A DNA stretch of 63,373 nucleotides, counting the filler, from Rhizaria sp. SCN 62-66 (taxonomy: Eukaryota), in NCBI GenBank assembly GCA_001724265.1. It is 10 parts of 10 records of this genome, joined end to end, with 100 filler letters (N's around TTAATTAATTAA, not from the genome) between each part and the next. Parts side by side here need not be neighbours in the genome. Positions count along the whole stretch, not along the records: positions 1 to 5,044 come from MEDY01000646.1; positions 5,145 to 11,963 come from MEDY01000647.1; positions 12,064 to 17,709 come from MEDY01000648.1; positions 17,810 to 25,443 come from MEDY01000649.1; positions 25,544 to 32,339 come from MEDY01000650.1; positions 32,440 to 39,201 come from MEDY01000651.1; 4 more parts are not named here. One strand, 5' to 3'. The notes below the pieces were generated by a model. That model was not told the origin of the DNA. It worked only from the letters and a program-made list of their open reading frames with translations, and ran no database searches. Shown here one piece after another: positions 1,560 to 39,201 of the stretch (positions within the stretch are counted from its first letter, which is position 1; each line of letters starts with the position of its first letter). The position numbers and the translations under genes were made by a program.

Positions 1560-4500
1560 ATGGGCGCCTTACGAACGGCAATAACAATTGCCGTGGTCTT
1601 TCTTTTGGTTGTGATCCTTGCTGTGCTCCCCAGCTCCGTCACTGCCGTAGCTGTAGCTTCCAATGACGACGCGATGGAGAACCCGTCGTCTGAACGTGTT
1701 TCTCCTGCCTCTCGCTTTGTCAATGCGCCTAACGAGAGCGCCGTTAATCAAAGCGGGCTGCTTGCGAAGCCTGCAACATTAACTGAAAATGCAATCATAA
1801 GTAAGGGCAGCAGCAACAGCAATCTCAGTGACAGTGCTCGCCCCAGTCGCAACAGGACGACAGAGGAGTTTACTCTCGCTGCACTTCAAACGGGTAGTGA
1901 TGTGCCACCATTTAGTCGACGCAATCTCCTGGTGAAGCACCAGCAGCAACAACGCAAGTTACAGCAGCATGGCAAACAAGACCGTTTTAGCACTCAAGCT
2001 GCGGCAGCCGGCTTAGTTCATGGTTACCGTGTTACCTCCGCCATCCAGTTTATTACAAGCGGCCAATCAACACTAAACAGCTACCGCTACTATATGGCAG
2101 AGAATCTAATATCGTTGCAATGCACAGGGTGCAGCAGTGTTTCCATTTATGCTGGTTGGACAATGTTTTACGATCAAGCGGTTGCATGGGGGGATGCGTG
2201 CACCTCAGCCTCGTTCGTCATGGAAGCTGACTGTGACTCGGATTCTTGCACGGACTATCCAGCAGGCTTGAAATTGACATCTTGCCCATCTACCCAGACC
2301 AACGCCAATCTTTTCTGGACGAGCGCAATATCAGGGTCATACGACGTAACGTTCAAAAAGGCGGGGTGCAACTCAGACGCGTCCTTTTCCACTGTCCACG
2401 CATCAACAGTCGCTACGAGGTACTCGATTGTTGGAGGCACTGCAATGGCAGCTTCTTCGTCGTTGGCGCAATATGGGGCGTATCAGCTTTCTGTAGCTGC
2501 CACTTCTATTGGCAGTCCTCGCAGCGGCACGGAAACCTCATTTATTCTTGAAGTGAGCATTAGGAACATCATCGAGCGAACGCTCGCATTCGTCAAGGCA
2601 GGATATGAAGCAGCTGATACGAACCCATACTACTATCGAAATGTATATAGTGACTCAATCGTTGATTTTGAAATCGACATCACCAGTAGCGTTGGGGCTC
2701 TCGTCACAAGCCTAACTTACATTGCTGTCAACCACAGCTACCTCCCGTTTGCATCGCAATTTTTGACTGAGTCGAATGAAGCTGCTATCCAATCTATTTT
2801 TCTTCTCGAGAAGCGATCCAATACCTAGTATGTATTCCGCCTTAATTTCGGTTATGCGTTCTACAAGCATGATCCGGCAAGATCCCTCACACTCCGTTTT
2901 TAGGCCACAACTATCAACGCTTTGTCAACATATTCTTCTGCATCTCTGGTTGTGTCCGCGCGGCCATCGACTTACTATACGACCGCCACAAATACTCAAG
3001 TTTGGGACTTCTTTTCATGCGGCAACTACGCCGCGAGCACACGGATCTACACTCCAGCGCAGCTTTAGTTCAAAGTTGAAGGCTTTGAGCAATCTGGCAC
3101 TTATGAATCAAACAATCTCCTCACCGCGGCCTTTACCACGTGGATTGGGGCAGGTGTAGAGTCGCTCTTTAGCAGTGTGGGTGGTGTCCGCGGTCACATT
3201 CGTTTCTGTGGCACATCGCCGGTGTTTTTCTCGTCCTCCTCCACGATTATGAACTCTGGCTGCACAACGGTCTCGTCTGCTTCTACTCACTTCATCTTTA
3301 CTTGTACCACTAGCGGTGTTCTCGGATCAGGCAAGGTTGAGCTCAACATTACAAACGTTCAGTCCCCAATGAGCTCGGGTGCTCCTTCAATTCCTGCGTA
3401 TTGCTTAATGATTCACTTAACCTCTCAAGCAACCGCGGGCGTCCCTGTGACGGTTGCGACATCACTGTCGGCGCCGATTATTGCCAAGATGAGCACCATG
3501 ACATACTCGTACGCACCAAGCGCGTTGGTTCTGGCTCCAGGGTCCTCAAACTACACTCATGCTGTTTCTACATTTGCTGGCACTTTTAGCATCGTGGTCG
3601 GCGAAGCCCTTTCCGTTGGATCAAAGCTTGTTTTGATTGCAGCAGATTCGAGTACCTTTGACTTTACTTCTGTGACTACCGCAAGTAGCACCACGTGTAC
3701 AGCTGTTGGATCAAGCACTGAGCTTACAATCACTCTAGTTCAAAACAAAGCTGTTGGGTCCACGCTTGCATGTGCTCTGGCTAATATGCGTGTTGTGTTT
3801 GCCAACACTGTTGCACGCGTGTCGATAAATGATCCTTATGTAATCAGGAAGGATATGCTAAAGATCACGTCGCCATTAATTACAACCGGCATCGCCGCAT
3901 CAAACAACCTTGTTCTTCGTGCCGGTAGTACCGCCGCCTATTGGTTTCATATGACGCCGATAGACCGCGTTCTTGTCCAGGGCTCTGTGTTAGCGACATC
4001 GCGCCTGTTACAAGTCTCCATGCGCATATACTTTTATGCCACCAACCCCAGCGCAAGCGTCATCTCTTACACGGTAACTTCTTTGTGCAGCGACATTACA
4101 ATTGTCACACCTTCCAGCTCCGTAACGCCATCGGGAGACTACCGCGTCACGGAAGGAACAGCCACGTCCATCAGGTTTGACGTCACCGCCTCGGCGCGCT
4201 ACTCGCTCGACCTCGCCTGCTTCAGCATGGGGACTATCGCACGCGCTGTCGCTGCGGCGCAAGCGGTCTCGGCCTACTCGCGCCAGCTTGACTTTGTGTT
4301 CTACCCCGTGACCGCAAGCCTCGCATCTGGAATTAGTCTTACCGCTACCACACATGAAGCTGCAATTGTTAATCTTGAGTATGAAGTTTTGGTTTATGCC
4401 CATACAGCACTCGCTGCAAACTGGGGCTTTACATTGACCATGCAAAGCGAGATTGCACTGCGAGCTGTGGTCACCACCAGCACGGCTGCTATCACGTCCT

Positions 4501-5044
4501 ACACGGCCGGCACCGGACTCACCAAGGTCACGTGCACAGTCAGCCGCACTAGCGCAACTGTGGCTGCTGTGAGCAATTGCGGCGCCATAAGCGGATCCGG
4601 CAACTACTACGCGCCCCGCGTGTTCCGTTTTGGCCCCGTGACCGCGACGTACGGCAACTATCTGGCAATGTTCAAGACTTACAGCACAGCACAAGGCGCG
4701 CTGGGCACAGTCTCTGGCGTCAGTGTACCTCAACAGAACACAGACATGTCCGATGACTCTATTTCAGCAGCAGATTCAAAACCGAGTGCTGTCGCTGCGC
4801 TTTCCTTGACACGTGTTACAGCTGCAGCTGTTTCTGGAGCCACAACAACTACGCCCACCGTTACAGGCTCATCGCGCCAAAATTATCTTGTGCGTGTATT
4901 CTTCTTTAAGCGCATATCGACTGCTACGGTTACGTACACTTACACTGCATCTTCAGGAATGACATCCAACTCGGCGGTATCTGTCGGCACTTGTTCAGGC
5001 TATGCACAGGGCAGTATTAAATGTTCGTCATCTCTTACACCCGC
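1560..5044 (+). CDS. Large secreted or surface Ser/Thr/Ala-rich protein (>1160 aa, 3' truncated), one frame with three internal TAG codons
   Basis: Hydrophobic signal peptide (MGALRTAITIAVVFLLVVILAVL). ORFs 1512-2828 and 3177-5096 are in the same frame, and the gap between them is open except for TAG at 2826, 2901 and 3066. Composition stays the same across the gap. Confidence 0.75.
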
Positions 5045-5144
5045 NNNNNNNNNNNNNNNNNNNNNNNNNNNNNNNNNNNNNNNNNNNNTTAATTAATTAA
5101 NNNNNNNNNNNNNNNNNNNNNNNNNNNNNNNNNNNNNNNNNNNN
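5045..5144. other. Artificial contig linker (N44-TTAATTAATTAA-N44), first of nine
   Basis: The same 100-nt linker occurs at 5045-5144, 11964-12063, 17710-17809, 25444-25543, 32340-32439, 39202-39301, 44571-44670, 52424-52523 and 57659-57758. Adjacency across linkers has no biological meaning. Confidence 0.98.
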
Positions 5145-5154
5145 AAAAAGAAGA

Positions 5155-5225
5155 TGCGCTGCCCGGGACTCGAACCCGGATCTAACGCTTGGGAAGCGTC
5201 AATCTTACCCCTAGACGAGCAGCGC
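5155..5225 (-). tRNA. tRNA-Gly(CCC)
   Basis: GCGCTGC/GCAGCGC acceptor stem, GACGC-TTCCCAA-GCGTT anticodon arm, TTCGAGT T-loop, followed by an oligo-T Pol III terminator. Confidence 0.95.
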
Positions 5226-6289
5226 CGTCCTTGATTTGCTCGAACAAACCTAGAGATGCACTTTTAGTGCGAATTTAATGTATACAAATAATTAACTTTT
5301 GATGTTGTTTATTCAATATTTGTATGAAATCTGTCTATATATTGGCTAGTCTTTGACTAAAACGTTATAGTTGATATGTATAAGTTTATTGCAAAATGTG
5401 CAGGCAAGTTTCTAAGTTTGAGACCTCGAGTATGGCAATATAATTGCATTCTGATGTTGTGCTGATGTCGTTACTACTAGTACTAGTAATCTTCGACGTC
5501 GTGAATGCACTCTACAACATTATATTTTGGCTCTTGGGTATTAATACATTTAGAATCGTCAACAAAAATGCCATATCTGATGTAAGTTTGTACATTTATT
5601 TGATTTGCCCAAGTATTGGTTGCAAAAAGCTTGTCCAAAGTTTGAGTAGCTTTTCAAGTGGTAGTAGTACTAGTACTAGCACTTGAGAAGCAAGTGTGAA
5701 AGAAACCGAGCTAATCTGAGGCAGCATTAAACTCTTAGGCAATTTTAAGGATGTTTAGTTGCTTTGATAATACTGTTAGGTTCTTGATATAGTTTCTGTC
5801 TTGTTTCAACTCGAGTTCACCAAAGAACTACAACTTGAAGCAGTAAAGTTTTGCGTGATCTTTTCCTACGCTTCTCCAACTGTTATAGTAATCAGTATTC
5901 AAGCCAGATTCAAGTTTATCTTCATACTCTTGCTTTTGAAGTCGTTATCTTTTCAGTATCGAGAGCGTCAGTTGCTGTTGATGTTACCACTGTCACGCAG
6001 CTTGACAACTGCTGAGACACAAGTGACAATGTTGTCAAGAGGAACATGATTTAAAACATCATTTGAGTAACACTACATAACAGCAGTGATGATTGGACCT
6101 ACAACATCTCGTGTCATGCAAGCGGAGGAGCACGAATCAAACTGCGCGAGCTCTGTATTGCGTTAAGATGCAACGCTTGAGCGAATTTACTCTGCAATCG
6201 CCAGGATCCAGGCGTTATGGGGAGCAAAAAGTAAAAGAGACGACTTCGTTGGAAGAGACAGGCAGGCGTTGGGTGGACAAAAAAAGAAG

Positions 6290-6361
6290 CTCTCTGACCG
6301 GGAATTGAACCCGGGTCTCCTCCGTGACAGGGAGGAATACTAGCCACTATACTATCAGAGA
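6290..6361 (-). tRNA. tRNA-Asp(GTC)
   Basis: TCTCTGA/TCAGAGA acceptor stem, CCTCC-CTGTCAC-GGAGG anticodon arm, T-run terminator. Confidence 0.95.
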
Positions 6362-7068
6362 TTACTGGGGTAAATGCCAAATTTTAGTATATAAATTAGT
6401 TTATATTAAAATTTATTTTTATGATATCTTGTGAATTTCGTCTGTATCGACCGAAAAAAACTTCTTATGATGAATTGACCGCTTAATTTTATGTTTCAAC
6501 AAAATTGCAGACATAACTGAAGCTGTTAACGCAAAGAGAAAGCTCGTCAAATACTGTCACGACAGTTCATCCTGTCATTTGCGCTACTGTATCACCGCAC
6601 ATCGACGACAATGTAGCTAGACACGTCATATCGTTATACCATCATTAATTATGACAATATGTTATTTAAGCCGTTTGAGCATTAAACATATCGAAGTTTT
6701 AGAGCGACTCTACTGCATTATGCTAGTTATTATTAGTACTAAAATGTTACTAGTACTAATACTACTACTAGTAGTAGTATTAATACCGTCGTGTCACCCA
6801 CGCACTGATGGTCTTGATACCAACAACAAAGACATCGATGACAGACGTGCGTTGTTCGTTGCAGCCGTCAAATGTAGGCCACAGTCACTGCGGGAGGTCA
6901 CTGCTGCAAAATCTGCAACAAAAGCTGAACCTCCGTAAGTCTTGTACTGTCGCGCGTCCTGGGTTTATGTAACCGAGCATCATCAGCAAGGCCGGGGCAA
7001 AAAGATAAGCGGTCGCGGCCACGTTTGTTTGCGTGTGCGTTGGGGAAGGAAGACTGAACCAAAAAAAA

Positions 7069-7141
7069 TTCCCACTACGGGACTTGAACCCGTGTCTCAG
7101 CAGTGAGAGTGCCGTATACTAACCACCTATACTAAATGGGA
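7069..7141 (-). tRNA. tRNA-Glu(CTC)
   Basis: TCCCATT/AGTGGGA acceptor stem, CGGCA-CTCTCAC-TGCTG anticodon arm, T8 terminator. Confidence 0.93.
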
Positions 7142-7226
7142 TGCTTGTTGTACAAAGAGGACCAGCCTGGAGCAGAGCAAAGGGCAAGGGCGTGAGGGAA
7201 AGCGATAACGTGGAGGAAAAAAAAAG

Positions 7227-7298
7227 TGCGCTATCCGTGAATCGAACACGGCTCTAATCGTTGGCAACGATCAATCATAACCACTAGACCAATAGCGC
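7227..7298 (-). tRNA. tRNA-Gly(GCC)
   Basis: GCGCTAT/ATAGCGC acceptor stem, GATCG-TTGCCAA-CGATT anticodon arm, TTCGATT T-loop, T9 terminator. Confidence 0.93.
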
Positions 7299-7890
7299 CA
7301 CATAAACAGACGAATCTGCTCAATTAGATGTCTGTTTTTGTCAAATCTAATATTTAAATACTATTAAAATTGTTTCTTTAAACGCAAATATCTCTCTGTA
7401 ACTATGTTCCACGGTCAAATTAATGCTACTATAATGACAATTACATGTGATTAATAATACTTTTGGTTTTTCTCTTGTAACTCTTAGGTACTCGGAAACG
7501 CATGTACTAGTACTAGTACTAGTAAGTTTGACTATCCGAAGATTTGCTCACAATAGACTGCTGTGTCCAAATTAAAAGACTGTATTTGTTCTCCATCATA
7601 ACGCAAATGCTTATTTTCTTTAGTTTTCTTGTGTTTTTTTCAGCATCAGAGCGCATGACATCAATCTCAGAATCCACCTTCCCCAGTCGCGTGTTGTTTA
7701 ACAACATAGCATCAAACTCACTTACTCTGACTCATGACGTTTCATTGATTTGACATTGCAGTTGAGTCGACTCACAAGTCGCAATTCAGAGTTAGCACAG
7801 CAAAGGATGACGTTACCACTTGTTGTGCAGGTTAGTGAGCCTGTTGCTAGAGTGCGTTGGCACCAAGTACATGCTTAGAGCAGAGGTGAC

Positions 7891-8181
7891 TTAGTTGTTG
7901 CGACGGTTGGACTGGTTGCGGTCCTGCGACGACTGGTTGCGGTCCTGCGAAGACTGGTTACGGTTCTGAGACTGTTGCGAGCGACCCGCCTGTGCCTGCT
8001 GCTCGTTCTGCTGCTGCTGGCTCTGGGAAGACTTGAGGTTGCTCTGCGCCTGCTGCTGCTGGCGGGAGGACGAGGACTGCTGCTGCTCGTTGCGGTCGCT
8101 GCGCTCGTTGCTGCGGTTCTGAGCGCGGTCGCGGTCGGAAGACTGGTTCTGGTTCTGGTTATTGCGAGGAGCCTGCGACAT
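7891..8181 (-). CDS. Small Q/N/S/R-rich disordered (hydrophilin or prion-like) protein, 96 aa
   Basis: ACC-ATG start and strong GC3 codon bias (CAG, AAC, TCG, CGC) inside an AT-richer spacer. Internal NQSSQDR repeats. Composition changes sharply at the TAA stop. Confidence 0.6.
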   Translation of the reverse strand: MSQAPRNNQNQNQSSDRDRAQNRSNERSDRNEQQQSSSSRQQQQAQSNLKSSQSQQQQNEQQAQAGRSQQSQNRNQSSQDRNQSSQDRNQSNRRNN

Positions 8182-9896
8182 GGTCTTGTGGGGTGCTGTT
8201 TAAGTCAAAGTAGAGCAAGAAAGGCAAAATGAACAATTTGTGAGCTGAGGAAAGTATGTAACAACTTGAATTAGTCAAAAAAAGCACTTAAAACAAGGAT
8301 TATTAATGCATAGCGCCAAAAAATAGCAAGTTTCCAAAGTCGTAGATCACATCTGACACGGCGGAATCAACGTCAAAAAGATCAAGTAGAATTAGGACAC
8401 AAAAACAAGCAAGTCAAAGAGTTTCCTCAAAAGAATAGACTTGTGTTCGTGTCTAGCGTCAAAAGAAATAAGATTAAGACTTAGACACGATTAGGAAATG
8501 CGAAATCACATGTTTGAAGTAAACGTGCAAATCTTCCCTCGCCCACCGCCACCGCGGAAGCCGCCTGTGACGTCAGTCAGTGAACAGCCCAGACTCACAG
8601 TGACTGTGAGCATATTGCTTAAACTAGCATATTTCGATCGTTAAAGTGTGTTTTCTGTTATCAACACACTTGAAATAAATTGTTTTGACTATTCTTGTTT
8701 CTACTTTGCGATTTAAGTGTTGCTTCCTGAAGTTGTCTTTCGTGTTGCTAACACTCTTTGAAGCAGTGAACGTGCTTGCAAAGCTGAATTTGCAATGATA
8801 TACTTTTTTTCTGGGAGCAAAACTAGAAATCAATTGTAAACTGTGATATTACATTATAAATCTAAACGTTCACCCAAATCTCGCATGTCTTATTGATAAA
8901 CAGCAACAACAAAAACCCCTATATTCAATATTGTGCATAATTATAAAACCTATTGCTTCAGAGCGATACTCTGTCCTACAAGTTTATACTCTAAGTTTCA
9001 AACAAATTTTATATCATTCTATTTTAAATGGAATTTCATTTCAATATATTTCACTTTCCATGTTGCATATCTTGTTGAACGTACAAGATCTTCTGGTCTC
9101 ACATCACGACAATGATTTACAAGAGTATAACCACTCAAGATAAAGATATTTACTTATAAAACTCAAGTATCCGCTTGGTAGTCTGCCTCTGTTTTTTATA
9201 TGTGCGCGCAATAAACTTTGGAATCAGAACAAGAGCGTTACAGATATCATTTGAGTGTTACTCCTTAACTCTCGTTGACAATCAAGATCTGTCTGTGCTT
9301 TCACGCTCCTTCTTGACAACAACTCTGAAGATATATTACTGTGCACATAGAGAGATATTGTGCGCGTCTTTTGTTTTAACATGGCAGCTGTTCGTGTATG
9401 TTGTGTCGTAAGCCATTGTGCAAGGCACGTCGAGCTGCGTACTAGTACCTCGTCGAAGTGGAGTTCCTGATGACTAAAGTTTTACAGACTGAAAGGCGCC
9501 TCTCTCTGCTGTTCAAGTTATCTGGGACTTTCTTTTTATGTCAAAGGTGTCCATAGACTCACAGCTGTTGTCGATGACTCCGTCGTCGTCGACATCAGCG
9601 TAAGTTCCTTTAGCCTCAGTAGCCGCGCAAGGGTGACAGGCTCACAACACAGTTGCTTGTGTGAGCCAGTCCTCGCCCGTGAAGCCCGTTTTGCACTTGC
9701 ACTATATCAGATGAGATCATGTCAGATCATGCTAGCCTTCGCAATTGCTCATGACGTTAGCAAAGAGTTTCACGTGACAAACGCGTTGATGTGTTGTGTC
9801 TAAACTGTAATACGCTTTGATCCCTATTATATAAAAGTTTTTGTTCAAGTTGACACACAGCGACGTGTAAGTACCCCCTTACAGTGTCTATGTACA

Positions 9897-9969
9897 TCCC
9901 ATTTAGTATAGGTGGTTAGTATACGGCACTCTCACTGCTGAGACACGGGTTCAAGTCCCGTAGTGGGAA
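9897..9969 (+). tRNA. tRNA-Glu(CTC)
   Basis: Inverted copy of 7069-7141, followed by a T-run. Confidence 0.93.
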
Positions 9970-10466
9970 TTTTTTTATGCACGGGTCCAATCAGGCCTTC
10001 CGTGCAGCGCGCGCTCACCACCCAGCGCAGCCCGCTTGCTGTGTTGGGCCATCAACGCTTCCTTTTTGCTCTCTCTGCTGCGTGCCGTGCCTGTACGCCT
10101 TTGCTGTGCACCTTACGCGCGCGGGCACAGCTGCTGACGTGCTCGTGCGCTCCGCAGCTCGTGACTTGTGCCTGCACTGGTCTTCCTTGTTGCAAGATGT
10201 CCAGCAGCATAATCATTCAGCACAACAGAGCAACGTGTCTTTCAAGGCGATGTCTGTCAGCACCAGGTGACGTCAAGGAGTTGAGCGTGATATTAATGCT
10301 GTGATCTTGTTTGTGAGTAATATCGCAGAGCATGATGTGGCGACATAAAAAGTTGGCATAATGCAGTGAGTCAGCTTGAAACTTCGATGTGTGGCATAAT
10401 CAAACAGCCTGAGCAACATATCGCGGAACTTGACTTCGGAATTGCGTCACAGCGCTGGCATCGCGA

Positions 10467-10533
10467 CTAGTACTACTAGTAGTACTACGTAGTACTAGTA
10501 CTGCTACTCGTACTACTGGTAGTACTAGTAGTA
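10467..10533. repeat. Palindromic (TAGTAC/ACTAGT)n microsatellite, one of several in the tRNA spacers
   Basis: Similar tracts at about 5473-5488, 5662-5681, 6735-6783, 7505-7524 and 11642-11680. Confidence 0.8.
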
Positions 10534-10741
10534 TCGCATTCATTGAGCTCTAGCTTGAAGATTAATATGTCAACGTCAGGCCATAATCTATATGATGAAT
10601 TGTAACACAAAAATACAATATTAATAATATATTACGAAATTTGCGTTGTCAGATTCCCAACTCACCGTCACGAGATATTTTAAAAAAAATAATTCAATGC
10701 AAGATATCTTATATATTAAATTTTGTCCGTTACTCCAGTAA

Positions 10742-10813
10742 TCTCTGATAGTATAGTGGCTAGTATTCCTCCCTGTCACGGAGGAGACCCGGGTTCAATT
10801 CCCGGTCAGAGAG
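10742..10813 (+). tRNA. tRNA-Asp(GTC)
   Basis: Inverted copy of 6290-6361. Confidence 0.95.
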
Positions 10814-11882
10814 CTCTTATTTTTGCACCTTACGCGGCCCGAACACACAAGTACACGCGCTGTTATTCTCGCCCTCGCGAACTTTTTTTTGCTCATCGAT
10901 GCGCTCTCGGTGTTAAGCTGGTTCACTAACTTTTTGCGCATCGCATAAGCAACAAGATGTCGGTTCGCTGTTGCTTGTGACTGTGTGACACTGTTGCAGG
11001 CTCTCAGCACTGTTAGCTTGATGTCCTGATGCTATCTCGCGTAACAAGAATTGTGTGACTAAGGCATCAATGCTACGACACGCAATTCGTCGAACAGTTG
11101 CTGTCATGAATCCTAGTTTGCTGGAGAGTGCGACAGCAAAGAATGACAGTTGCTCGTTGCTGCACTCACTGTCACTCATGACTGAGTAGACGGAATTTCA
11201 GCAGTCGACAGTGACGAGAACGAGTCAAACGACTCCGAATCGTGCCTGAAGAGTCGGAATGTACTTTAGTAAGTCAAAAGGTTCGATGAGGATAAGGATG
11301 TTGATGAAAGCGCAACAAATAACCACAGAAACGTGAGAAATATCGAGCAGCGTTGGGTAAATGAGCTGTGACCGTTAAAGTGGCGTGATACTGTTAAGTT
11401 GGTTTGATGTCAATGACCATATAGTGAGTTTCCAACTCAATTTCGTCCGACGAAATTGTGCAACCTGAAAAGTTGCACAAAATCTTGACAAGATTTTTGC
11501 AATGGATCCTCAGGTGAAACACGTGAGATGTTAATATAAGACAGTCTATGTGCTATTATAAATAATTTCAAGCAAATCAACACACAAAAACGAGACTTCA
11601 TAGTTATACTAGTAACAGCCCTACAGCAAACCCAAAGTGAAAGTACTGTACTAGTAGTAGTATTAATACTAGTAATAGTTGAGGTTTCAAACTAAGCGTA
11701 TTTGCAAAAAAGTTTAAAAGAGTAGAAAAAAATGCAATAACCTGTATTATCAGCCGTTAAAAAGACCCTATACGCTGTTTGTGCAATGAAAACAGTTTCG
11801 TTTTAAACGTATTTTAAACAGTATTATATAGTAAATTCGCCTTATCAGTGCATCTCTGGTTTGCTCGAGCAAATCAAGGACG

Positions 11883-11953
11883 GCGCTGCTCGTCTAGGGG
11901 TAAGATTGACGCTTCCCAAGCGTTAGATCCGGGTTCGAGTCCCGGGCAGCGCA
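11883..11953 (+). tRNA. tRNA-Gly(CCC)
   Basis: Inverted copy of 5155-5225, ending in TCTTCTTTTT at the contig end. Confidence 0.95.
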
Positions 11954-12998
11954 TCTTCTTTTTNNNNNNNNNNNNNNNNNNNNNNNNNNNNNNNNNNNNN
12001 NNNNNNNTTAATTAATTAANNNNNNNNNNNNNNNNNNNNNNNNNNNNNNNNNNNNNNNNNNNNCTTCTTACGTGTTGCCTCCGCATCCCCAGTCTTTATC
12101 AGCTCCTCAAAGATAGCAACTTTGAGCCACCAGACCATGTAGGAACCTCTGCGGACCGGGACTCCCGAAGGAGCATCCTTGTGACGGGTACTTAAGTTCA
12201 ACCTTTTGTCCTCTGACATCTAGTCATCAGGTGAAAATGCGATATAGAGAGTTGATGTTTTGACCTGAAGTTTAGAGGGAGGTTTGATGGGGCTAATCTA
12301 CGCGTATACTGCAAGAAACACAATAATAATTTAAAAAACTTGTTTTAAACTACGCATAAATTACAATTCATACAGTTAAATTTACATTGACGGCTATTTC
12401 ATGTGGTAATCCAGTGATGTTTATTGGGGATGGGGAGTCTGGCCGAGTGCCGCCACACCACAAACATGTGGGGGAAGAGGCTCAATCGGCCCACCAATTT
12501 GTGACCCCCCTGTTAAGGTCAGAAACAGACGTTGCCTCAGGACTATGTGAATAGGGGGAATGGAAGGGTCTGCACATATCCGCATATGTGCGGAAACGTT
12601 GCGTCGTGATATTATTCTCCTTCATTTGGATATCGCGTAGAATCTGCGGCTAACTTCCTCGTAAACGTATGAGCCAGCACCACTCACAGTTCGGCCTAAC
12701 TTCTCGTTCGTCGAAAGTCATAGTCCGCACTATCAGAAAAGTGCACGTAGCGGACAATGGCAACGCTAGATTAACAAATGAACGACTTATTTTGTAGACT
12801 TACTAGTTGTTTACGTATTCTTCAACGTCATATCCGACAACTACGCTCATTCCTTCCTGCTTCCCTTTTTATTCTTAAACTTTCCAGAAGGTTCCTTGAC
12901 GCCGGTTTTGCCACAATGTTACGCTCAAAGCTGCTATCCGCTGTGCTGCAGTCGTCTGCTAGCAAAGGGCTAGTACGTGGCCTTGCCGCACACATGCC

Positions 12999-15900: not shown

Positions 15901-16418
15901 ATCCTGCTGCCCTTGCGCGTTTAACCTGGCGTCTTGATGCATTGTCCCAAAATCATCCTGACTTTGATTCATACTTGATTGATCATCCCCATGGGTTTAT
16001 CAAGAACACTAGCCCTGGTGAGAAAATCAAGAAGCCCCGCCTCGTTCTATTCCAATTCACAATCGGCAAGGAGCATTCTTTTTTCCCTGGGCGCGTTTTC
16101 CGAAAGGTTCAAGAGTTCAAGCGCTCGTTGGGGAAGACACTGGGATTGCCAAAGGGCGACGAGATCGACGTCGATATTGTTTTCATGTCGACACATGCAT
16201 ACGTTAAGCTCGAAGTTTCAAAAAGGGAGAAGGTTTTGACGGAGTAGCAAATCAACAAAGGTGTGGAGGGTGTGACACAGGATGACATTGAAAAAGGAAT
16301 GAAGCTGCCTCTGTACTTCATTCATTTGGACGGAACTAAAGGAGTTGCAACGGATGCTAAAAAAGTTGCAACGAATACGAATAATGAGCAAGCCATTGCG
16401 TCAAGTATTTCTCGGTAA
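12999..16418 (+). CDS. Crinkler/RHS-type protein: coiled coil + P-loop NTPase + PD-(D/E)xK-like nuclease; start uncertain; three internal TAG codons
   Basis: ORFs 12999-13607, 13617-14690 and 14745-16247 are all in one frame, separated by TAG. Reading through TAG 14688 gives LMLRKSHTNLY...CLVRGPPGTGKT (Walker A). The C-terminal NHPDFD...LFQFTIGKEH resembles CR-REase motifs. The frame continues past TAG 16245 to TAA at 16416-16418. Confidence 0.7.
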
Positions 16419-23465: not shown

Positions 23466-23485
23466 GCACATAGTTTTCCACACAC

Positions 23486-24093
23486 ATGGGATCTAAAAAT
23501 AGTAAGGCAAGCACGGACAACGACACAACGACATTCGGTTGATGCGTCGTATGAAAAACGATGCCAACTTCCTTACAGACCTGTTGAGTCGACCTAAGTC
23601 TGATGTAACACGCATTGCCAAGGAGGTGATCGTGGCTGACGCCAACAATCTCGTTGCATCATTGGTTAACAAGCGTGACAAGTTAATGGCACAGCGCGAT
23701 AAGTATAACGCTTTGAAGGCGAACCCAAAGAGTGCATATGCAAAGCTACCTTGTGGACAGCGTGGGGCTATAACTAAGAAGATCAATGCAGAGATTTAAA
23801 AAATCAACGCTGAGATTAAAGAGAAGAATGTGTCGCTAGAAGATATCGCCGATGTTGAGAAAGCGAGTGAGGTTGACACCGATGAGATCGGGGAATTCCT
23901 CACAAAGTATTCAGCACCTGCACCCGCTACACCGACATGCGCTCTAGCACCTGCACCATCTATCGCACCTGCCCCAGCCCCTGCACCATCTACACCTCCT
24001 CCTGCCCCAGCCCCTGCACCCACTACCGCATCTGCCATACCTGCAACTCCGCCACCCCGTGTGAATGCCGTTCGAGTTAATCCTGCGATTTAA
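23486..24093 (+). pseudogene. Small disrupted gene between penton and MCP (MGxxxSK start, basic helix, PA-rich tail)
   Basis: MGSKNSK start, a frameshift near 23540, then ORFs 23539-23799 and 23830-24093 in one frame, separated by a TAA inside a KINAEI duplication. Confidence 0.45.
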
Positions 24094-24207
24094 ACTCATG
24101 GTGATGGTGATATGAACAACATCATGGTAGGTGGTAATTGACATATAACAATTACAATTACATTCACATTTTTGTCATAGCTCTATTGACAAAGTGTAAA
24201 CTTTCCC

Positions 24208-25443
24208 ATGGCAGATACATCCAATATTGATTATACGCCTTCGTGGCCCGTGTGCAGCATCATCCATCCTAAATCTGAGATTCCCGTTGAGTTCGGTGTG
24301 ATCAACAGTGACTACAAGGTTGCCGTCTCACAGAGTGGCACCTCGATTCAGAACGCTGTGTTCAACTTCAGCGTTAGCAAACAGAATGTGTTGTCGCAGG
24401 CCGTGTATGTCAAGATCCCCATCGAGTATAGCTTCAGGTTTACCGCTGGTGGCACCGTCCGTGACCTTGACGGCCATAACAACTGGTGTTAGGCCAATCT
24501 GGCGCCTCTGCGGGCTATTAGTTGTTGTGCAGTGACTATCGGTGGTCGCACGTTTGACCGCGATACTGCTACTCTGGCCGGGCTATGTGCCCACCTGTAT
24601 CCCACCGACGTGCCTATCCTGTCGGGTATCTTCCCCCTGCCCGATTAGACCGCTAGCCTTGATAGCACCCCGGCAACGAATTACAAGTTGGCTCCGTTTG
24701 GTAGTCCTCTCAACACGGCTTACGAGTTTTCGCAGGCACGCAAGAGTTCACTTGATAAGGTCACCTACTACACGGCTGCTGCTCCTAACACCGTGCATAC
24801 TGGCGCCCTTGTGAACGGCACCGTGTATATTTGTCGAATCCGTGGTAACTGGGACTTCCCGCTGCCGTTTAATATGTTTTCACCGGTTGGCGGGCCGGGC
24901 ATTGTTGGAAGTGGCAGTGTCGTCGTCGATCTTACCTTTAATCAGCGCTGGTTGGATTGCATTAAGTTCCGCAATAATACTGTTCTCGACACTTACGCTG
25001 ACGGAGATCTAACAGTTAGTTTTACAAGCCCACCGTCGTTGACTTATTGCATCCACCATTTATATGATGCTGTTTGTGAGTCTAGCATGTCCAAGACCCA
25101 GGTTTATCCGATGTCAAACTATATCAACCGACGTGATGCTGTCACCCTGTTGGAGGCTGGGGCTAGTAAGGACATCTTCACTTCAAGCACGTCTGTGAAC
25201 ACCATTCCAAAGAAGATTATCATTAGCGCTCCACGAGTGGCTGTGAGTGGTGACACTAATATGCAGCGTATGCCTACCGGCAATAGCTATGCACCTATCA
25301 GCGGCCTCACCGTGTCGCTGGGCGGTCAAAACGTGTTCTCCTCGCTTGATTCCGCGTCTCTTTGGCGTCTGAGTGCCAAGAATGGATCATCGCAAACGCT
25401 GGCTAGCTTTTTGAAGGGCGGGTCGGTCATTCTATCGCTTGAG
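24208..25443 (+). CDS. Virophage-type double jelly-roll major capsid protein (3' truncated), two internal TAG codons
   Basis: One frame, open except TAG at 24490 and 24646. Motif order matches Sputnik-like MCPs as I recall them: FNF..S.QNVLSQAVYVKIP, APL.AI....VTIGG, P.LTY...YP, TIPKKI, ISGLTVSL.GQNVFSS.....LW.LS.KNG..QT...F..G.VI.LE. Confidence 0.8.
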
Positions 25444-25543
25444 NNNNNNNNNNNNNNNNNNNNNNNNNNNNNNNNNNNNNNNNNNNNTTAATTAATTAAN
25501 NNNNNNNNNNNNNNNNNNNNNNNNNNNNNNNNNNNNNNNNNNN

Positions 25544-28500
25544 GCGGATTGCGTTGAATTTCGGGGCAGTTTGTTGTAGGGCACTTGACAAAGGAGGTGT
25601 TGTTTTTGAGCAAGTAGGCGTCGCGCGCCCACCGCAGCATGGCGACAAACTCGCCGTCGCCAAAGTCAGCGATCGGAATGCTGCGCAGCGGCAGCTTCTC
25701 CCCGCACTTGGGAGCGCAGCACTGGCAGCCGTCCCGCTTAAGTTGCACGATGACGTCGGGCAGGCAGTCGCGGCATGCCACGTGGGAGCACGCGGCCGAG
25801 GCCATGCCCATGTTGTGGCGAAAGACGTCATCGCCGCAGTAGGTCATGCACGCATTGCCTGCGAGAGTCGCAGCCTTTTCGTAAAGCATGTTGCGACCTT
25901 CAAGTGCAGACTTAAGATCGTCACCGCTCTTTTTGGATCCTGAAATAAGATAAACGTTGCTTTGCGCGTTACTGGGCGCAATTTTACAGTGGATGTGCAC
26001 AACACCACTGGCCTTCATCAGCTCCTCGACGTGGGCTGCGTTCACAGTGCCCTTGAGCTCGATGCGGTTGTCGATCCACGCGTAGCGGGAAAATTCATCC
26101 GCAAGCTTTTGAATATCTGCGCGCAACGCATTGCAGCTTGCAGCACTGCCGTAAATGTCAATGGAGTTTGTTGTGCTGTTTAATCCAGCCCACGCCGATA
26201 GCCGAGACGTGAACTTATCCTGGCTGTCGTGTTTCCTTTTCTTCTCAAACTTAGTCTTAGCCAACTCAGCCGCGGCCCTCTTGCTGCGGTGTGTCGTGAA
26301 GAGCTTGCCCAGACGACTCATGCCAGTGGGGCCAGTAAGACGGGCAAACACGTCGACGAGCACACCGGTGTCGGGCCGCTTAAAGGGCTCGATGCGGTGA
26401 GACACAAAAAAAAGCTCGTTATCGACATACTTCTTTGCTATGTCGATCACAGAGTCCTCGCCGGCAATGTTGATGGTGTACCTCGTGCCGTTGTTGACAG
26501 AGGGCATAATCTTGCATTCAGCGCCCTTTGTGATAACCCGTAGCTCAGACATGATCTCCCCACCCATCGACTTGCCCGCATTGGCAGGCATGACAATCTG
26601 CAGCAGCCCGCAGCAGCGCTGCTCGAGGCTGCACCCGAACAGACTGGCGTCGCTCATGTTGCCCCCGGGGAGATCGCCCATAATGTAGGCGTACTGGCGC
26701 GACGTGTGGCGGTTGACGGCTGTTGCGAGCTTGATGATGTTTTGCTGCGCAAACGCGCGCGGCAGCTCGAACTCCCCCGTCGCCCGCCAGCTCACCTCAA
26801 CGACGTTTTTAGTAAACACGGCTTTAACGCCGTGCACGTCTTCCGCAATTGCCACCGCGTTCGGCTCCGTTTTCGCGAACGCAACCGCGCCGCGGAGCGC
26901 AGGCTTCTCGCTTAGCAAGTGGTGCACCTCCTCCGCGGCGACGCGCGAGACGCAGATCATCGTCACCGTCACTTTCTTCGGGTTGTTGGTGTCGCGCGTA
27001 AATGAGATGCTCGGCGCCAATTTGCTGTGGCCACCAGGAAGAAAGGCGGCACAAAACGCCTCATCATCCTCGAACTCGTCCCGTCCAGGCGCGCATTCAA
27101 CAGACACAGTCACCGTTGCAGTTTCGCCGTAGCACAGGATGTCGCGGACTTCCAGACCGGCGCCGCAGAGCAGAGAGACGTTGCCGGCAAAACTGAACTG
27201 ACGCACCTCGGTAAGCGTGCGCCTGCGTACATCCTCGCGCAACTGCTTGAATGCAAACAGCGCCTCAGCCGCCAGGTTGTCAGCCTCGGGCGCGCGCAGC
27301 AGGACGCCCGACGCGTCGAGCACGATCGTGCAGCGATACTTGCGCTCGAAGCGCTCGCACGCGGTGTTAGTGGGAAATATCGCGTCCACCTCGCCGGGGT
27401 TTAGCGTGTAGAGCTTGCTGCGCATGGTCTTGTTGTCGCGCATAGCAACGCACTTGCGGTAAAACTCAGTGTTGTGCTCTGAAATCCAATCCAGCTTGAT
27501 GGGCACCGGCGGCGTCGTGATAATCGATTGGCCATGGGACGAGTGCGCGGACACGTACACCGCCCACTCGCTCAGCTCGCGGATAACCGCGGCCGACTCG
27601 CGGCGCCAGTTGACCAGGATCTTGCCGCTGCTAACGCTGGTATAGTACGCGTGCCTGTTCACGTCCATCGTGATGTCGTTGTTGATGATGCGGATGGCGT
27701 GTAAAGTACCCCGCGGCCACGCAGCAGAACACGTCCTCGTCGCTGATGTTGTCCTTGCCGACCGCGCCGCGCCCGCCCAGCGGATACCGCTGGGCAAACC
27801 TAGTGATCATGTGCTCGATCCAGTTCTGCGCCAGCTTAAAGTACTCCTCCGACAGCCGCGACTCCCTGGTCACGGCGATGCGCTCCCGCTGCGAGGCCGC
27901 GGCGAGCCAGCCCAGAATAAAGCGCACGCACACATCGACGCGCACCGAGCCCTTCTTGTTTGTCTTCTGAGGCGCCGCCGTCGTGTCACCAGAAGCGTCG
28001 ACTCTCTTGTCGTCGCCCGATACTTCGGCAATGAAGCCGGGACTGGAGATGTGGACGTAATGCAGTGCGGCGGCGACGACAACGCCGAACTTGAGGCACT
28101 TGTGCTTGGCGCCCTTAGCAATGACCAGCGTGAGCTCGATGGGGCACCCCGTGTCGACGCTCATCCTGCCCATCTGCGTCGCCTTGTGCGTCTTCCTGTC
28201 AAGGGCGCCCAGGTTGACCAGGTCCTCCATCGCGTGCCGAACCGACTCCTCCGGCGGCGGGTCGAACCATTTAAAGTCGCGCGGGCTATGGCCCAGTGAC
28301 GCCAAGCAGAGCACCGTTGTCTGCAGCGGCTGGCACTGCACCGCGGCGACGTTGGCCTTGTCAAAGCGCTTGAGCGCGCTTTTGCTGTAGAGGCGCACGC
28401 AAAAACCGGGGCGCGTGCGGCCAGCGCGGCCCTTGCGCTGCTCGGCCGAGGCCTGCGAGATGGGCTTGAGCGACACGTGCGCAAGGTGCATCTTGGCGTT

Positions 28501-30600
28501 GAACTCGCTCGCGGAGCGCAGGCCGGGGTCGATGACCACGGTCACGCCGTCAATCGTCAGCGACGTCTCGGCAAACTCGGTCGCCAAATACACAATGAAC
28601 TCGTTGTTTTTGTTTTTTTCGCGCTGCTCCTGCGCCAGCTTGTACGCCACCTTGCCTTTGCCTTTGCCCCGGCTGCCAGACCACTTATTAGCTCTGTCGG
28701 CGTCTTCGTTGATGGCGAAGAGGTTGTTGGCGGGCTCCAGGTGACCGTCAGCGTCGGTCATGGTTACCACCGAAAAGCGGCCATCGTTGGGCATCGCGCG
28801 CGCCATGGCGGAGTTTTCAAGCATCCGCCTCACGATGTTGACGTGGTTGTCGGTTGGCAGGAACACCAGCACGTTGCCCTTGAGCGGGCCACAGAGGTCG
28901 CCGCGCAGACACCGGTTGACTGCGGAGCAGACCGTGCCCACAAGCGTTTGCGCCGTGAATGGCGTCGCCGGCGTCTCGTACAGGACGTCGACCCAATTGC
29001 GCTGATCTTTGATGTGGACCCGGCCCACGCGCGGTGCGCCCGCGGCAGTGCCGGTGAAGTAGCGCGCGAAGGCGTCGGCGTCAATGGTGGCGGACATGAC
29101 GACGACCTTGAGGCCCATGCGCACCGCCTTGGCGGCTAACGAAAGCAGGATGTCGCTCTCGATAGTGCGCGCGTGCGCCTCGTCTAACACCAGGCAGCCT
29201 ATGGTCGCGCCGGGCACCAGCGCGCCGGGCTGCCCGAGCGCGTGGTCCGTCTTGCGCGTCACGGCTGCGCGGTAGGCGCCGATGGCGTCCATCTCGGAGG
29301 CGTAGGCGATGCGCGTGCCCGCGCCCGCGCCCGCGCAGTTGGCGCCGAGGAACGTTACGTCAGCGGAATTCTTGGCGCCCTCTATCGTGATGCAGTTGCA
29401 CTTGTGGACGGCGTCGATGTGCTCAGGCATGCGGTGCTTGAGAAGCCCGTGGACGCGGTAGCACGAGCCGTTGTAGACGTCGCGCACGTACTGGGACAAC
29501 TGCTCCGCCGCCATGCGGTGCGGCTGCGTGCACAGCACGGTCTTGCCTTGCATGCGGCCGAGCTCCGAGATGAACATGGGCACCTGCGTGCTCTTGCCGC
29601 AGCCGGGCGCGCCGGTGACGACGACGATGTCGTTGTTGCGCACGGCGTCCTCGACCTCCTTGCGGTGCCAGCGCACCGAGTGCTCCCCCAGCAGCAAACT
29701 CGCTTCGCGCCGCAGGTAGCGGATCAGGGCCTCGCCGTTCCGCTGCGCAGTGGCGGTGCGCAGACGACGGTCAAGCTCGCGCCCGTACTCGTTGAAGCAG
29801 CCCTGCAGCGCCTCCCGGTCAACGCCGCGCAGCGTGGAGCCCTCGCCGAAGTAGTTGCCGTGGACTGTGCTGCGCACGCGGTTGAGCTGCTCCAGGGCGC
29901 ACTCCACCAGCGCAGCCGTGGTGTAGCTTGCGGTCTTCGCTGCGGGCTGAGCGGAGCTGCCGTTCTTGCCAGCGCCAGCGCCAGCGCCAGCGCCAACGCC
30001 AGCGCTACTGCTATTGTTGATGTTGTTGTTGTTGTTGTTGTTGTTGAACAGCGGCGGCGGCGCAGTGTTCAGGTAAGCCCCTTGCTAGCCAGACAGTGAC
30101 AGCGCGCGCATACTGGCGGAACGCAGACTGTTACCGTGAGCACTACTGTTGGCGCTGCTGTTGTTGTTGGACTTGATTTTGCCTTGCATTGTCGTCGTCG
30201 TGTGAGCCGGCGCATTTTGAGGTACTGTCGACCTGGCGGGCGCAGCTTGAGTGTGAGCCGCGGTGGTAGGGGCGGTTCCCTGGGGGTTTCTGCTCCACTT
30301 GCCGCTGGCATCTCGCCCCTACGCACCTACATTGGCATCTGCTTTGACACCAGCTGCAAGTAAAGTGGGGGCGTCGGAAAACACACCCGCGTTGTTGTTT
30401 GCGCGAGCGCCCGGCAACGTGTTAGCTGTTCCCAGTGTTGTAGACAAGGGCTGATAGTGGCGAGGGGCGTGCGTTGCAAATGAAAGATTTGTGTGCGAAG
30501 CGGCGATGAACTTGCGAGGCTAGGGGCAACGCTGAACTTTATGCTTTGTGCAGCTAGTGTCCGCGCAATTGTCGCCATCTTTACACGACTCATCAGAGAC
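25544..30600 (-). CDS. DEAH/RHA helicase with C-terminal RING-IBR (DEAH11/12-like architecture); 3' truncated; start uncertain; one frame break near 27700
   Basis: Helicase motifs GAPGCGKSTQVP, LVLDEAH, MSAT and QRKGRAGR, plus an HA2 region. C-terminal C..C...CSH..C..C RING and FVKCP..NC IBR start. The N-terminal low-complexity extension 30519-29908 is open except TAG at 30520, 30319 and 30085. Confidence 0.8.
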
Positions 30601-31039
30601 AGGCCGTAAAGCTGGAAGCCACATCATTGTAGCTACAAGAAAAATAGGAAATAAACATGCAAAGAGACGCGACAAATAAATAGCAGATAGTAAAATAGGG
30701 GGGTATAAATAGAATAATGTTGACCACGGTAGCATAGTCCCACGACGATGCGTCGATGAAGGTGTAGTCGCCGACGGGATACTTGACCGCTGACATCGCC
30801 ATCGCCGACGGATACAAACTAAATAAAAACTAAAACAACATTTATTCAACAATACGACAGTTTTAACGATATTGACATTCAATACACTGTTATATCAGAG
30901 TCTTTTATGTGTGCTATTTTTTGGACGAAGGTGAACCATCATGGCCACCACAAACGCTTTTCACGTCACGTCAGATTCACCTTGGGCAAAAATATAGTTG
31001 TGGTTAAAATGTCCGTCGTCGCTCATACTTGATACGTCA

Positions 31040-32960: not shown

Positions 32961-33200
32961 ATGCAAATTTTCGCTAGGACTCTTGAAAACAAGACGATGG
33001 TTCTTGACGTCGACTCCTTGGACACCGTTAAAACTGTTAAACAGAAGATTCAGGACAAGGAGGGCATTCCCGTGGACGAGCAGCGCCTTATCTTCCAGGG
33101 CAAGCAGCTCGAGGATGACCGCACTCTTGCCGACTACAACGTTCAAAATGGATCTAATCTGAACCTTGTCCTCCGCCTGCGTGGTGGGCACTCGCAGTAA
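32961..33200 (+). CDS. Divergent monomeric ubiquitin-like protein with a 3-aa C-terminal extension
   Basis: About 52/76 identities to canonical ubiquitin by manual comparison. Ends [12 protein letters not shown]. Confidence 0.9.
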
Positions 33201-33923
33201 TGCTCCTTTGCTGCTCCCGCGCCCCGCCCGCGCCTGTATATTGATACCTTTTATCTGTGCTCAATTCCTTGCCCTCGGAGAATATTCCACAAACAACGCA
33301 TATTTCAAGTTGCTTAAATAAAAATAATACAATAAAAATAATACAAATCACGATAAAACGACTCCGCACAATTATATTGACCCATAAAGATAACTTAATT
33401 AGATCTCCACAGCGATGAAATCCCACCACTCATCTATAAACTATGCTACCCTTGCCTCTTGAGGACTGTTGGTTCCGAAAAAAAAACCGCCTCATGTGGC
33501 TGGCTGGCTGACGAGCTCCGACTCGCTCGCTGGGCGAAAGAGAAAACGTTTGTAAATCAACTTCATGGCCAAGATTATATCTGTTCTCACTACCATACCG
33601 AAATGTGTTCACCACATAACCGATGATGTGTTTCATTTTATCACTTATGCGTTCCTTCCTCTTCTAAAACATTTTTTCCCACCAGCTTCGCGCACTCTCT
33701 CGGAGCTTCACATCACCAATCCGCCAGCCCCGCCAGCCCCGCCCGTCTTCCTGCTTTACTGTTCTCCTGCGATATCTCTAATCGCGCAAAAATTTACATA
33801 TTTCAACGGCATCATTTTTTACCGCCTTGTCAACCTCTGTTCTTAAACGTCACGTGTACCGTGTGACCAATGAGCGGCAGGAACTTGCACAGTTCGCTCC
33901 CAGCGAAGCCAGAAGCGAGCTGA

Positions 33924-34751
33924 GTGCGGGGGCCTCGTCAACAGCGTGACAAGAATGCTTCGTCTGCTGACAACGTCAACAACTCTACTAGTGGCAACAA
34001 CGGCCACAACAGCTATACACCGCGTGTCACGAGGTTTTTGCCACAGGACGACGACGACTCCACAAAATAGCGCAACAACATTGTCAGCCAGTCCCGCTTC
34101 CCCAAGCCGAACACCAACATTAAGCCGAATGCTGTTGGTGCCGGCGACGCTCGTCATGGTCGCAAAAGGCTTGGCCGTCATCATAAGGCGTTGCATGACT
34201 CTGACTCGGATGACTCAGACTCAGACTCAGACTCTGGTGCTGGCGCTGCCGACTCGCAGCCTCGCTCTCGCTCTGGCGTTGGCTCGGAAATCACCGCCAC
34301 TGTAAAGCGCCCCCGCCCTGCCCCAATCACTACCGCTCGACCCGAGTCGCAAATCGTGGTGTTGGCCAGGGCAAACGTCGACCTTGCAGAGAAGAATCTC
34401 CTCGCGAGCCAGACTGCGATTACAAACGCGTCGACTATGTCGGAGATCAAACAGCTACGAAGTCTGGTCAACGTGGCTTCAGCCTAGTATGATAGGCAAA
34501 GGGCTGAGCTCCAAAAGGCCGCGACGCGTGTGGAACAACTCAAGCGTAAGTTTAGGACCGTGTTTGCTGGGTTTAAAGGTGAAGACGCATTAACCGAAAA
34601 TGTGGTGGTCCGAGATGTCACAGTTGTTTATTGCTACGCTGTTTCTAAGTATCTCCAGTCGACGGATCCGTTCATATGCTCAAATGTGGACCCCAAATCT
34701 TGCTTTGCGATCGTTGTGAGGCCTGGCCTGACAGTATTTGATCATTGGTAA
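33924..34751 (+). CDS. Hypothetical low-complexity/coiled-coil protein, two internal TAG codons, 5' end unclear
   Basis: Frame is open except TAG at 34068 and 34485 (VASA*YDRQRAELQKAA continues the helix). Joins ORFs 34191-34487 and 34530-34751 and ends in TAA. Confidence 0.45.

Positions 34752-39136: not shown

Positions 39137-39201
<65 letters not shown>

Follow-up and report, generated by a model that had tools for sequence, protein, structure and literature searches.

The stop codons UAA and UAG are almost always reassigned together, and UAG alone has become a sense codon in few lineages, according to the passages of the cited papers used here and in the comparisons that follow (PMC5304391, PMC11687900). 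Here we analyse a window of 63,373 bases (the whole stretch of DNA studied) from the assembly of Rhizaria sp. SCN 62-66 (GCA_001724265.1), in which genes on several contigs are interrupted by in-frame TAG codons. An original prediction made on this DNA had held a variant code to be probable, with UAG read as sense and with UAA and UGA kept as stops. Our results make it likely that UAG is indeed a sense codon here and that UAA and UGA are still stops; this is supported by colinearity with homologues across TAGs, by relatives whose frames end at the same sites, by an independent relative found in metagenomes (locus L001), by the lack of any TAA or TGA within the coding stretches, and, to a lesser degree, by the lack of TAG at the six supported gene ends of contigs 1–6.

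In the fornicate Iotanema spirale, UAG encodes glutamine, and UAA and UGA are stops (PMC5304391). The window resembles this code in that UAG alone appears to be sense with UAA still a terminator, and some of the residues aligned with TAG are Gln-like (Q, H and E). Unlike Iotanema as that source presents it, the organism behind the window has spliceosomal introns, about 50% G+C, integrated virophage-like DNA and one hydrophobic column among those aligned with TAG. In the rhizarian exLh, of the Sainouroidea, UAG encodes leucine, again with UAA and UGA as stops (PMC5304391). Reassignment of UAG uncoupled from UAA is shared with the window, and one capsid TAG here stands opposite hydrophobic or aromatic residues that include L, but the Q in close variants and the H and E in distant homologues do not favour leucine. 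Phyllopharyngean ciliates read UAG as leucine or glutamine, and UAA is their preferred stop (PMC11687900). As described there, they share with the window a UAG-only reassignment known from metagenome-derived genomes, and TAA is a stop here too. In contrast, TGA is the commonest stop in the window, G+C is 42–58% (with stretches to 66%), intron donors are of the GTAYGT type, and the contigs carry several genes with dispersed repeats; in our judgement these features are not like ciliate macronuclear DNA.

Codes with a single reassigned stop have also been fitted to giant-virus metagenome bins, with TAG read as glutamine ('code 15') or as tyrosine ('code 129') (PMC13524828), and no site-level evidence for the recoding was found in the passages of that paper. 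Those bins and the window have in common a TAG-only recoding deduced from metagenomes, some of them anthropogenic (activated sludge), and here a helicase gene lies near Nucleocytoviricota types and a capsid gene carries TAGs. Unlike what is described for the bins, the window includes cellular genes with introns, a gene for a basal-body protein, tRNA arrays and transposases, so the code is most simply that of the host. In phage code 15, TAG encodes glutamine in crAss-like and other phages (PMC9523058). An in-frame TAG in a capsid gene is common to both, but the phages in that source infect bacteria and bring suppressor tRNAs of their own, whereas the genes here are eukaryotic in type, with introns and poly(A) RNA. 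We found no report in the open-access literature, supplements aside, of a wastewater or activated-sludge protist with a code in which UAG alone is sense; the window would probably add to a known, rare kind of code.

The window consists of ten contigs (5.0–7.8 kb each) joined by spacers of the form N44 + TTAATTAATTAA + N44. There are nine such spacer places, the first at 5045–5144; the window is not a single molecule. G+C is 42–58% per contig and ranges from 37 to 66% over 2-kb stretches. All 13 TAGs of the original prediction were found at their coordinates, and the five TAG-bearing genes do lie on five contigs (1, 3, 4, 5 and 6); the three TAGs of contig 5 appear as CTA on the + strand, that is, as TAG on the - strand. 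The genes and sites concerned are as follows.

1560..5044, + strand: contig 1 gene, signal-peptide-like start, rich in S, T and A, running off the contig; TAGs 2826, 2901 and 3066
13605..13607, + strand: TAG 13605, candidate 3' splice site or 5' untranslated region (UTR)
13617..16418, + strand: contig 3 gene, coiled coil then P-loop NTPase, of a multi-copy family; TAGs 14688 and 16245; end TAA 16416
23506..24093, + strand: gene upstream of the capsid gene on contig 4; in-frame TAA 23797; end TAA 24091
24208..25443, + strand: gene for a virophage-type major capsid protein, truncated where the contig ends; TAGs 24490 and 24646
25546..30627, - strand: DEAH-type helicase gene on contig 5; TAGs 30520–30522, 30319–30321 and 30085–30087; frameshift near 27700
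33924..34751, + strand: contig 6 frame, low complexity and coiled coil; TAGs 34068 and 34485; end TAA 34749

Sequence comparisons strongly support TAG 14688 and TAG 16245 of the contig 3 gene as in-frame coding positions. The homologues P0126 (30% identical) and P0161 (34%) are single unbroken proteins that align across TAG 14688, and an alignment by eye with P0161 has zero gaps between the LLSQL block and the Walker A block. The claim that read-through restores a Walker A motif was borne out: GPPGTGKT is encoded past TAG 14688 and ahead of the next ATG, and read-through alone could produce it; the motif is conserved in these 30–34% homologues. Closer relatives break off at the same two places. 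P0160, 75% identical, is called as a protein that ends one residue before TAG 14688, and P0158 (76% identical, 496 residues) shares its start Met with the downstream gene call of the window and breaks off one residue before TAG 16245; both frames are otherwise intact over 24–25% protein divergence. We simulated neutral substitution of a 499-codon frame to 76% identity in 300 runs, with indels ignored, and observed a mean of 5.7 new stops and a stop-free frame in 1 of the 300 runs. The intact frames at 75–76% identity and the rarity of open neutral runs together indicate that the sequence downstream of the contig 3 TAGs is under purifying selection, both here and in the 75–76% relative. The tail beyond TAG 16245 still aligns to P0126, and its G+C by codon position is coding-like and collapses past TAA 16416. 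A variant contig (run X2, record 10, 14471–14752) is 96% identical to the window with 11 differences, none of them at TAG 14688; all 11 are accounted for elsewhere, and the variant therefore keeps this TAG. In the poly(A) RNA run X6, a contig over 16244–16415 has TAG 16245 unchanged, and the 3' flank at 16789–17544 is without depth, where the DNA runs do have depth. Run mapping covered contig 3 alone; no joints over its TAGs were reported, at thin coverage.

When metagenomes were scanned with the contig 3 family, 437 pattern matches yielded a single locus, L001. This contig encodes P0126, and its frame opens to the contig start once one TAG is read as sense. The codon lies in a conserved block, in the context KASKAKLDKTS[TAG]FDIAYAAAKA, which is gapless against P0161; the other 810 codons have no break, and TAA closes the gene. 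This stop and the (CA)n microsatellite directly after it lie within 2478–2510 of L001.

The contig 4 gene matched the Pfam family MCP_V20_C (PF22031; E 9e-10). Its structural model, with a predicted local distance difference test (pLDDT) score of 66.7, found the Sputnik capsid protein as its best PDB match in Foldseek (3j26_A; E 1e-12, template-modelling (TM) score 0.69) and mavirus as the next (6g44; E 4e-10), and on this model the gene product is a double jelly-roll capsid protein of a virophage or polinton-like virus. That read-through would give a continuous capsid protein was confirmed, the product being colinear with 8–9 homologues through both TAG 24490 and TAG 24646, which indicates that no intron lies at either place. 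Public gene calls include a family of near-identical capsid copies, and the close variants P0146 and P0147 show Q in place of TAG 24646 and, on our reading, keep TAG 24490. Scans of viral contigs for relatives, with the capsid protein and with a four-sequence alignment, gave none from 10 and none from 35 pattern matches, respectively. A PHROGs search of the genes of the capsid element returned nothing; its top hit, at E 0.006, was a tape-measure family matched over a coiled coil.

We then compared the three stop codons over the whole window. With TAG read as sense, there were 21 frames of at least 300 codons, the three longest having 1228, 1172 and 1142 codons and consisting of pieces of 463, 24, 54 and 658, of 214, 360, 518 and 56, and of 124, 66, 77 and 817 codons, respectively. 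Reading TAA as sense gave 17 such frames (longest 817), and TGA gave 37 (longest 1073); with either codon the gain was limited to short extensions of single long frames. The TAG pattern is beyond chance. TAG is the least frequent stop trinucleotide in 8 of the 10 contigs, contigs 1–6 among them. Six coding stretches of the five genes, amounting to 4471 codons, contained 12 TAG, 0 TAA and 0 TGA; the share of TAG expected from random nonsense changes is 0.50–0.52, and 12 TAG out of 12 has a p of about 3e-4, or about 4e-3 when restricted to the 8 better-supported TAGs. The argument that C-to-T decay would also yield TAA was upheld by codon usage, since CAA is about as common as CAG among Gln codons (65 and 76, respectively, with CAA exceeding CAG in contigs 1 and 3), so a C-to-T process at these codons should have made TAA too. 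TAG occurs at about 2–3 per 1000 codons, mainly in weakly constrained segments, as expected of a freed codon entering genes by mutation. The 13 downstream contexts have no common motif, and TATG follows three of them (2826, 14688 and 34485).

Six gene ends on contigs 1–6 are supported, namely TAA at 16416, 24091 and 34749, and TGA at 23398, at 35210 and, closing a 206-codon frame, at 31399. None is TAG, an outcome with a chance of about 1 in 6 given the usual TAG share of about 1/4. The gene ends cited in the original prediction fared unevenly: TAA 16416 and TGA 35210 are good, while 7891, 23463 and 33198 are TAA but close frames of 4, 43 and 80 codons. Gene ends on contigs 7–10 are mostly TGA.

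The residues aligned with the TAGs were examined column by column. At TAG 24646, two close variants have Q and nine distant homologues have V, T, T, R, T, W, P, F and L, while both homologues have H at TAG 14688. The L001 TAG stands opposite E in P0161 and, by alignment, opposite E in the window also. TAG 24490 lies where a predicted strand ends, and its column reads F, Y, W, M, M, F, L and W. A Gln- or Glu-like polar residue fits three of the five columns, which we take as a lean and not a finding; Gln is a one-transition neighbour of TAG. The proposed assignment of UAG to Gln is thus not established, the columns being Q, H, E or hydrophobic and the contexts quoted for it being uninformative on the residue.

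Each TAG was also checked for splice sites, as the host has introns. The control for this was the following gene.

37520..39010, + strand: pseudouridine synthase gene (Pfam PseudoU_synth_1), exons in different frames

Its introns have a GTACGT donor and an acceptor, ...CACATAG, just before a conserved block that we take to match the family pattern. This control implies that the host has spliceosomal introns and that TAG can be an acceptor. On contig 9, a 51-nucleotide GTATGC...TAG insert (53170–53222, its TAG at 53220) lies within the frame of a MULE transposase and is likely an in-frame mini-intron, the acceptor TAG of which mimics an in-frame stop. Introns proposed for TAGs 2826, 3066, 14688, 16245 and those of contig 5 were rejected, as the GT...AG pairs span 15–29 nucleotides, break the frame or remove conserved residues.

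The contig 1 frame (1359–5042) is open apart from TAG, in the pieces of 463, 24, 54 and 658 codons given above. It has no Pfam family, and self-comparison of the protein showed no internal repeat from which a residue opposite its TAGs could be read. An exact look-up of 10 guessed gene calls found one of them, the 438-residue first piece of this gene, in 3 contigs and with no variants. The G of TAG 2826 opens a donor-like GTATGT, and a TTTTTAG runs up to 2903, a span of 76 nucleotides that would break the frame; no frame-keeping GT...AG pair that removes TAG 2826 or TAG 3066 was found. The contig 6 frame, in pieces of 48, 138 and 87 codons, matched no Pfam family below E 0.01, and its codon-position G+C falls past the TAA.

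In the helicase gene, the core is 45% identical to P0006 and 43% identical to P0007. No ATG lies between TAG 30087 and the core, and ATGs stand upstream at 30189 and 30111. G+C at third codon positions (GC3) is 0.87–1.0 in the core, 0.63–0.8 across TAG 30087 and back to about 30240, and 0.5–0.6 at the two upstream TAGs. Because the GC3 signal persists and there is no ATG before the core, TAG 30087 is probably internal to the gene. Long same-frame flanks, the codon-position G+C signal and the lack of an ATG downstream give moderate support to TAGs 2826, 3066 and 30085 as coding. The region around the upstream TAGs has a weak likeness to the N-terminus of P0007 (E 0.012), a hint of coding. In an Atlas search the features of the helicase were nearest to HrpA-like helicase clusters of the Nucleocytoviricota (giant viruses). 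The C-terminal ~700 residues (25546–27689, - strand) end in a Cys-rich CRDCLP...CCAPKCGEKLP, with no Pfam match, that resembles a zinc finger of the RING or RBR type.

A number of observations weigh against a reassigned UAG. To begin with, one of the 13 TAGs originally counted as interruptions is probably not coding, and three more are doubtful. TAG 13605 is probably non-coding, either a 3' splice site or in a 5' UTR; the original prediction had itself allowed for a splice acceptor, and this fits with a 65-nucleotide GTAGGG (13543)...GATTTAG (13607) that would join an ATG-started frame (12778–13542) to 13608. The first ATG, at 13617, is 4 codons past this TAG, and the gene call on record (P0159) starts there; the LDKAKA block lies 36 residues after the start of P0161 and 45 after ATG 13617. 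TAG 2901 could be the acceptor of a 72-nucleotide in-frame intron that runs from GTATTC at 2832 to TTTTTAG at 2903 and keeps the frame. TAGs 30319 and 30520 are doubtful because the GC3 signal is lost there. The TAGs also avoid conserved cores, with none in the helicase core of ~735 codons, in the C-terminal part of 714 codons or in the exons of the pseudouridine synthase, and the residues opposite TAG are inconsistent over the five columns.

Signs of decay are present in two of the TAG-bearing loci. The helicase frame shifts at AAGYFT/HA in an ACAC run (27690–27710, - strand), and P0127 continues the homology in the other frame; relative to homologues this is a loss of 2 nucleotides or a gain of 1, with the 714 codons downstream intact, and a true lesion, a fault of the assembly or a difference between copies might account for it. 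P0146 and P0147 carry a frameshifting 43-nucleotide deletion (their N-terminus being read against the window DNA), and the capsid element may be partly decaying and hence weaker evidence on the code. The caveat originally attached to TAA 23797 stands, for this codon is in frame and flanked by two copies of KINAEI with differences confined to third codon positions (aag aag atc aat gca gag att TAA aaa atc aac gct gag att aaa), opposite the K (AAA) of the second unit, and is followed by 97 open codons with no Met; either a nonsense change or another stop that is translated may explain it. Multiple copies exist of the contig 3 gene and of the capsid gene, and there are many variant contigs at 90–95% identity. 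The stops of P0158 and P0160 are taken from the ends of gene calls, at the protein level and with the codon not seen, and the X6 RNA evidence consists of contigs at depth 2–4, not reads, with TAG 14688 and 13543–13607 uncovered. ARAGORN and Rfam detected no tRNA with a CTA anticodon among the window's seven tRNA genes, in line with the original caveat, and no eRF1 gene lies in the ten contigs. Short dispersed repeats tie contigs 1, 4 and 5 together, and contigs 9 and 10 form a separate link; these are the only contigs so linked, and the bin may hold more than one organism. Finally, the frame of a hydrolase on contig 10 ends either at TAG 62374 or at a TAA 41 codons further, and it may truly end at the TAG.

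We weighed these points against three other explanations. The TAG-bearing genes could be dead or dying copies in an organism with the standard code, belonging to multi-copy families, an endogenous virophage-like element and a gene of viral origin, and hit by TAG-biased mutation (CAG deamination or G-to-A change of TGG). The multiple copies of the contig 3 and capsid genes, the many variant contigs at 90–95% identity and the flanks of very high depth are in keeping with this, as are the helicase frameshift, the 43-nucleotide deletion, TAA 23797 in the capsid element and the conserved cores free of TAG. In addition, the Q of the close capsid variants is separated from the window's TAG by a single C/T difference, and the first capsid TAG stands opposite W or Y in some homologues, from which a change of TGG or TAY to TAG is possible. 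Decay is nevertheless unlikely in our estimate, as all 12 stops being TAG has a p of about 3e-4 when neutral spectra are assumed and of about 4e-3 with a CpA-to-TpA model like repeat-induced point mutation (RIP), and one frameshift in 4471 codons stands beside 12 nonsense codons. Stops of all three kinds, frameshifts and a lack of constraint, the signature of pseudogenes, were found in part for the capsid element only. The contig 3 relatives end at the same two sites with otherwise intact frames, an outcome of 1 in 300 neutral runs, and the Walker A motif past TAG 14688 is conserved against homologues of 30–34% identity. Variant differences in run X2 are symmetric (C>T 24, T>C 22, A>G 20, G>A 15) and not those of one-way hypermutation.

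UAG could also still be a stop that is read through in a programmed, context-dependent manner, or be ambiguous by position. Mobile elements are known to use read-through, and the contig 3 family may be of that kind; the in-frame TAGs are low in number and lie in variable linkers, three are followed by TATG (2826, 14688 and 34485), and contig 10 has its candidate TAG terminator. Against such a mechanism, five unrelated genes on five contigs are hit, the 13 downstream contexts share no motif, TAG closes none of the six supported genes of contigs 1–6, and contig 10 is tied by repeats to contig 9 only, so its terminator may be that of another organism. We regard this explanation as improbable, a little more so than decay, and the difference between ambiguous or programmed read-through and reassignment is mainly one of degree. 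The TAGs might, lastly, be absent from the mature mRNA, lying in short in-frame introns or UTRs or being edited to UGG or CAG. Short introns that end in TAG do exist in this DNA (53170–53222 and the pseudouridine synthase acceptor), TAG 13605 and perhaps 2901 fit, and GTATG donor-like motifs overlap three TAGs; UAG-to-UGG editing is a feature of sexual stages in some filamentous fungi. There is, however, no room for an intron at TAG 14688 (by eye), at the gapless L001 TAG or at the two colinear capsid TAGs, and introns considered at 2826–2903, at 14676–14714 and on contig 5 would disrupt the frame or cost conserved residues. TAG 16245 is unedited in the RNA contig that spans it and no joint was reported over the contig 3 TAGs, though editing could escape notice at the thin coverage of depth 2–4. 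An explanation at the RNA level is therefore very unlikely, to a greater degree than the two before it.

If UAG is a sense codon, ribosomes would read it as an amino acid through full reassignment or very efficient suppression, with termination left to UAA and UGA. The amino acid might be inserted by a tRNA(CUA), or by a near-cognate tRNA together with an eRF1 blind to UAG. Once freed, UAG would have entered genes by mutation, and integrated mobile or viral genes, such as the capsid gene and the helicase near giant-virus types, would have drifted to the extra sense codon of their host. A tentative wider proposal, which we hold to be possible though short of an even chance, is that a flagellated wastewater protist lineage with at least two diverged relatives in metagenomes has freed UAG alone independently, and that its virophage-like and giant-virus-like genes have adopted the codon. 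This would be a further independent case, in an easily sampled habitat and with relatives at several distances, on which to test how eRF1 and tRNAs separate UAA from UAG. It would also show how a freed codon spreads through genes and whether viruses and mobile elements follow the code of the host, in which event that code would be both a barrier and a marker for them. In practice, gene calling with the standard code fragments these genes, and public calls at the loci stop at the TAGs.

The source of the DNA is a eukaryote of wastewater and bioreactor communities. Contig 3 was present in bioreactor, wastewater and activated-sludge runs of several studies, including a poly(A) metatranscriptome, and the DNA was judged eukaryotic because of the intron-split pseudouridine synthase, transposases, TIR and Roc domains, a tRNA array and a DUF4515 protein. 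MULE and DDE transposases, as well as the TIR and Roc domains, are encoded in the window. The following features lie on other parts of the window.

5155..11953, contig 2: tRNA genes Gly-CCC, Asp-GTC, Glu-CTC, Gly-GCC, Glu-CTC, Asp-GTC and Gly-CCC
35213–37021, - strand: 603-residue coiled-coil protein of the DUF4515 / basal-body-orientation family (Atlas search)
42316–44441, - strand: RecQ-like helicase on contig 7, DEAD part and Helicase_C part in different frames

The DUF4515 protein belongs to a basal-body family, and the host therefore probably builds flagella or cilia. The Atlas searches with the helicase and with the 603-residue frame gave no usable taxonomy. A single TAG, at 43619, falls in the DEAD part of the contig 7 helicase, where the stretch that separates motifs II and III is presumably shorter than is usual for RecQ; the split of this gene could be due to an intron, a frameshift or decay.

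The two ends of contig 3 (12064–13006 and 17356–17709) have a DNA depth 10–60 times that of its middle, and other copies diverge at 13006; these flanks are high-copy repeats that border a lower-copy gene family. ARAGORN found seven tRNA genes on contig 2 and Rfam six. Their order is a mirror image, Gly-CCC, Asp-GTC, Glu-CTC and Gly-GCC being followed by Glu-CTC, Asp-GTC and Gly-CCC, and the inverted repeats that flank the genes are 85–100% identical, so that the array appears palindromic. Dinucleotide repeats are frequent in the window, with (GT)n at 39100–39201 and a repeat that encodes TLTLTL on contig 10.

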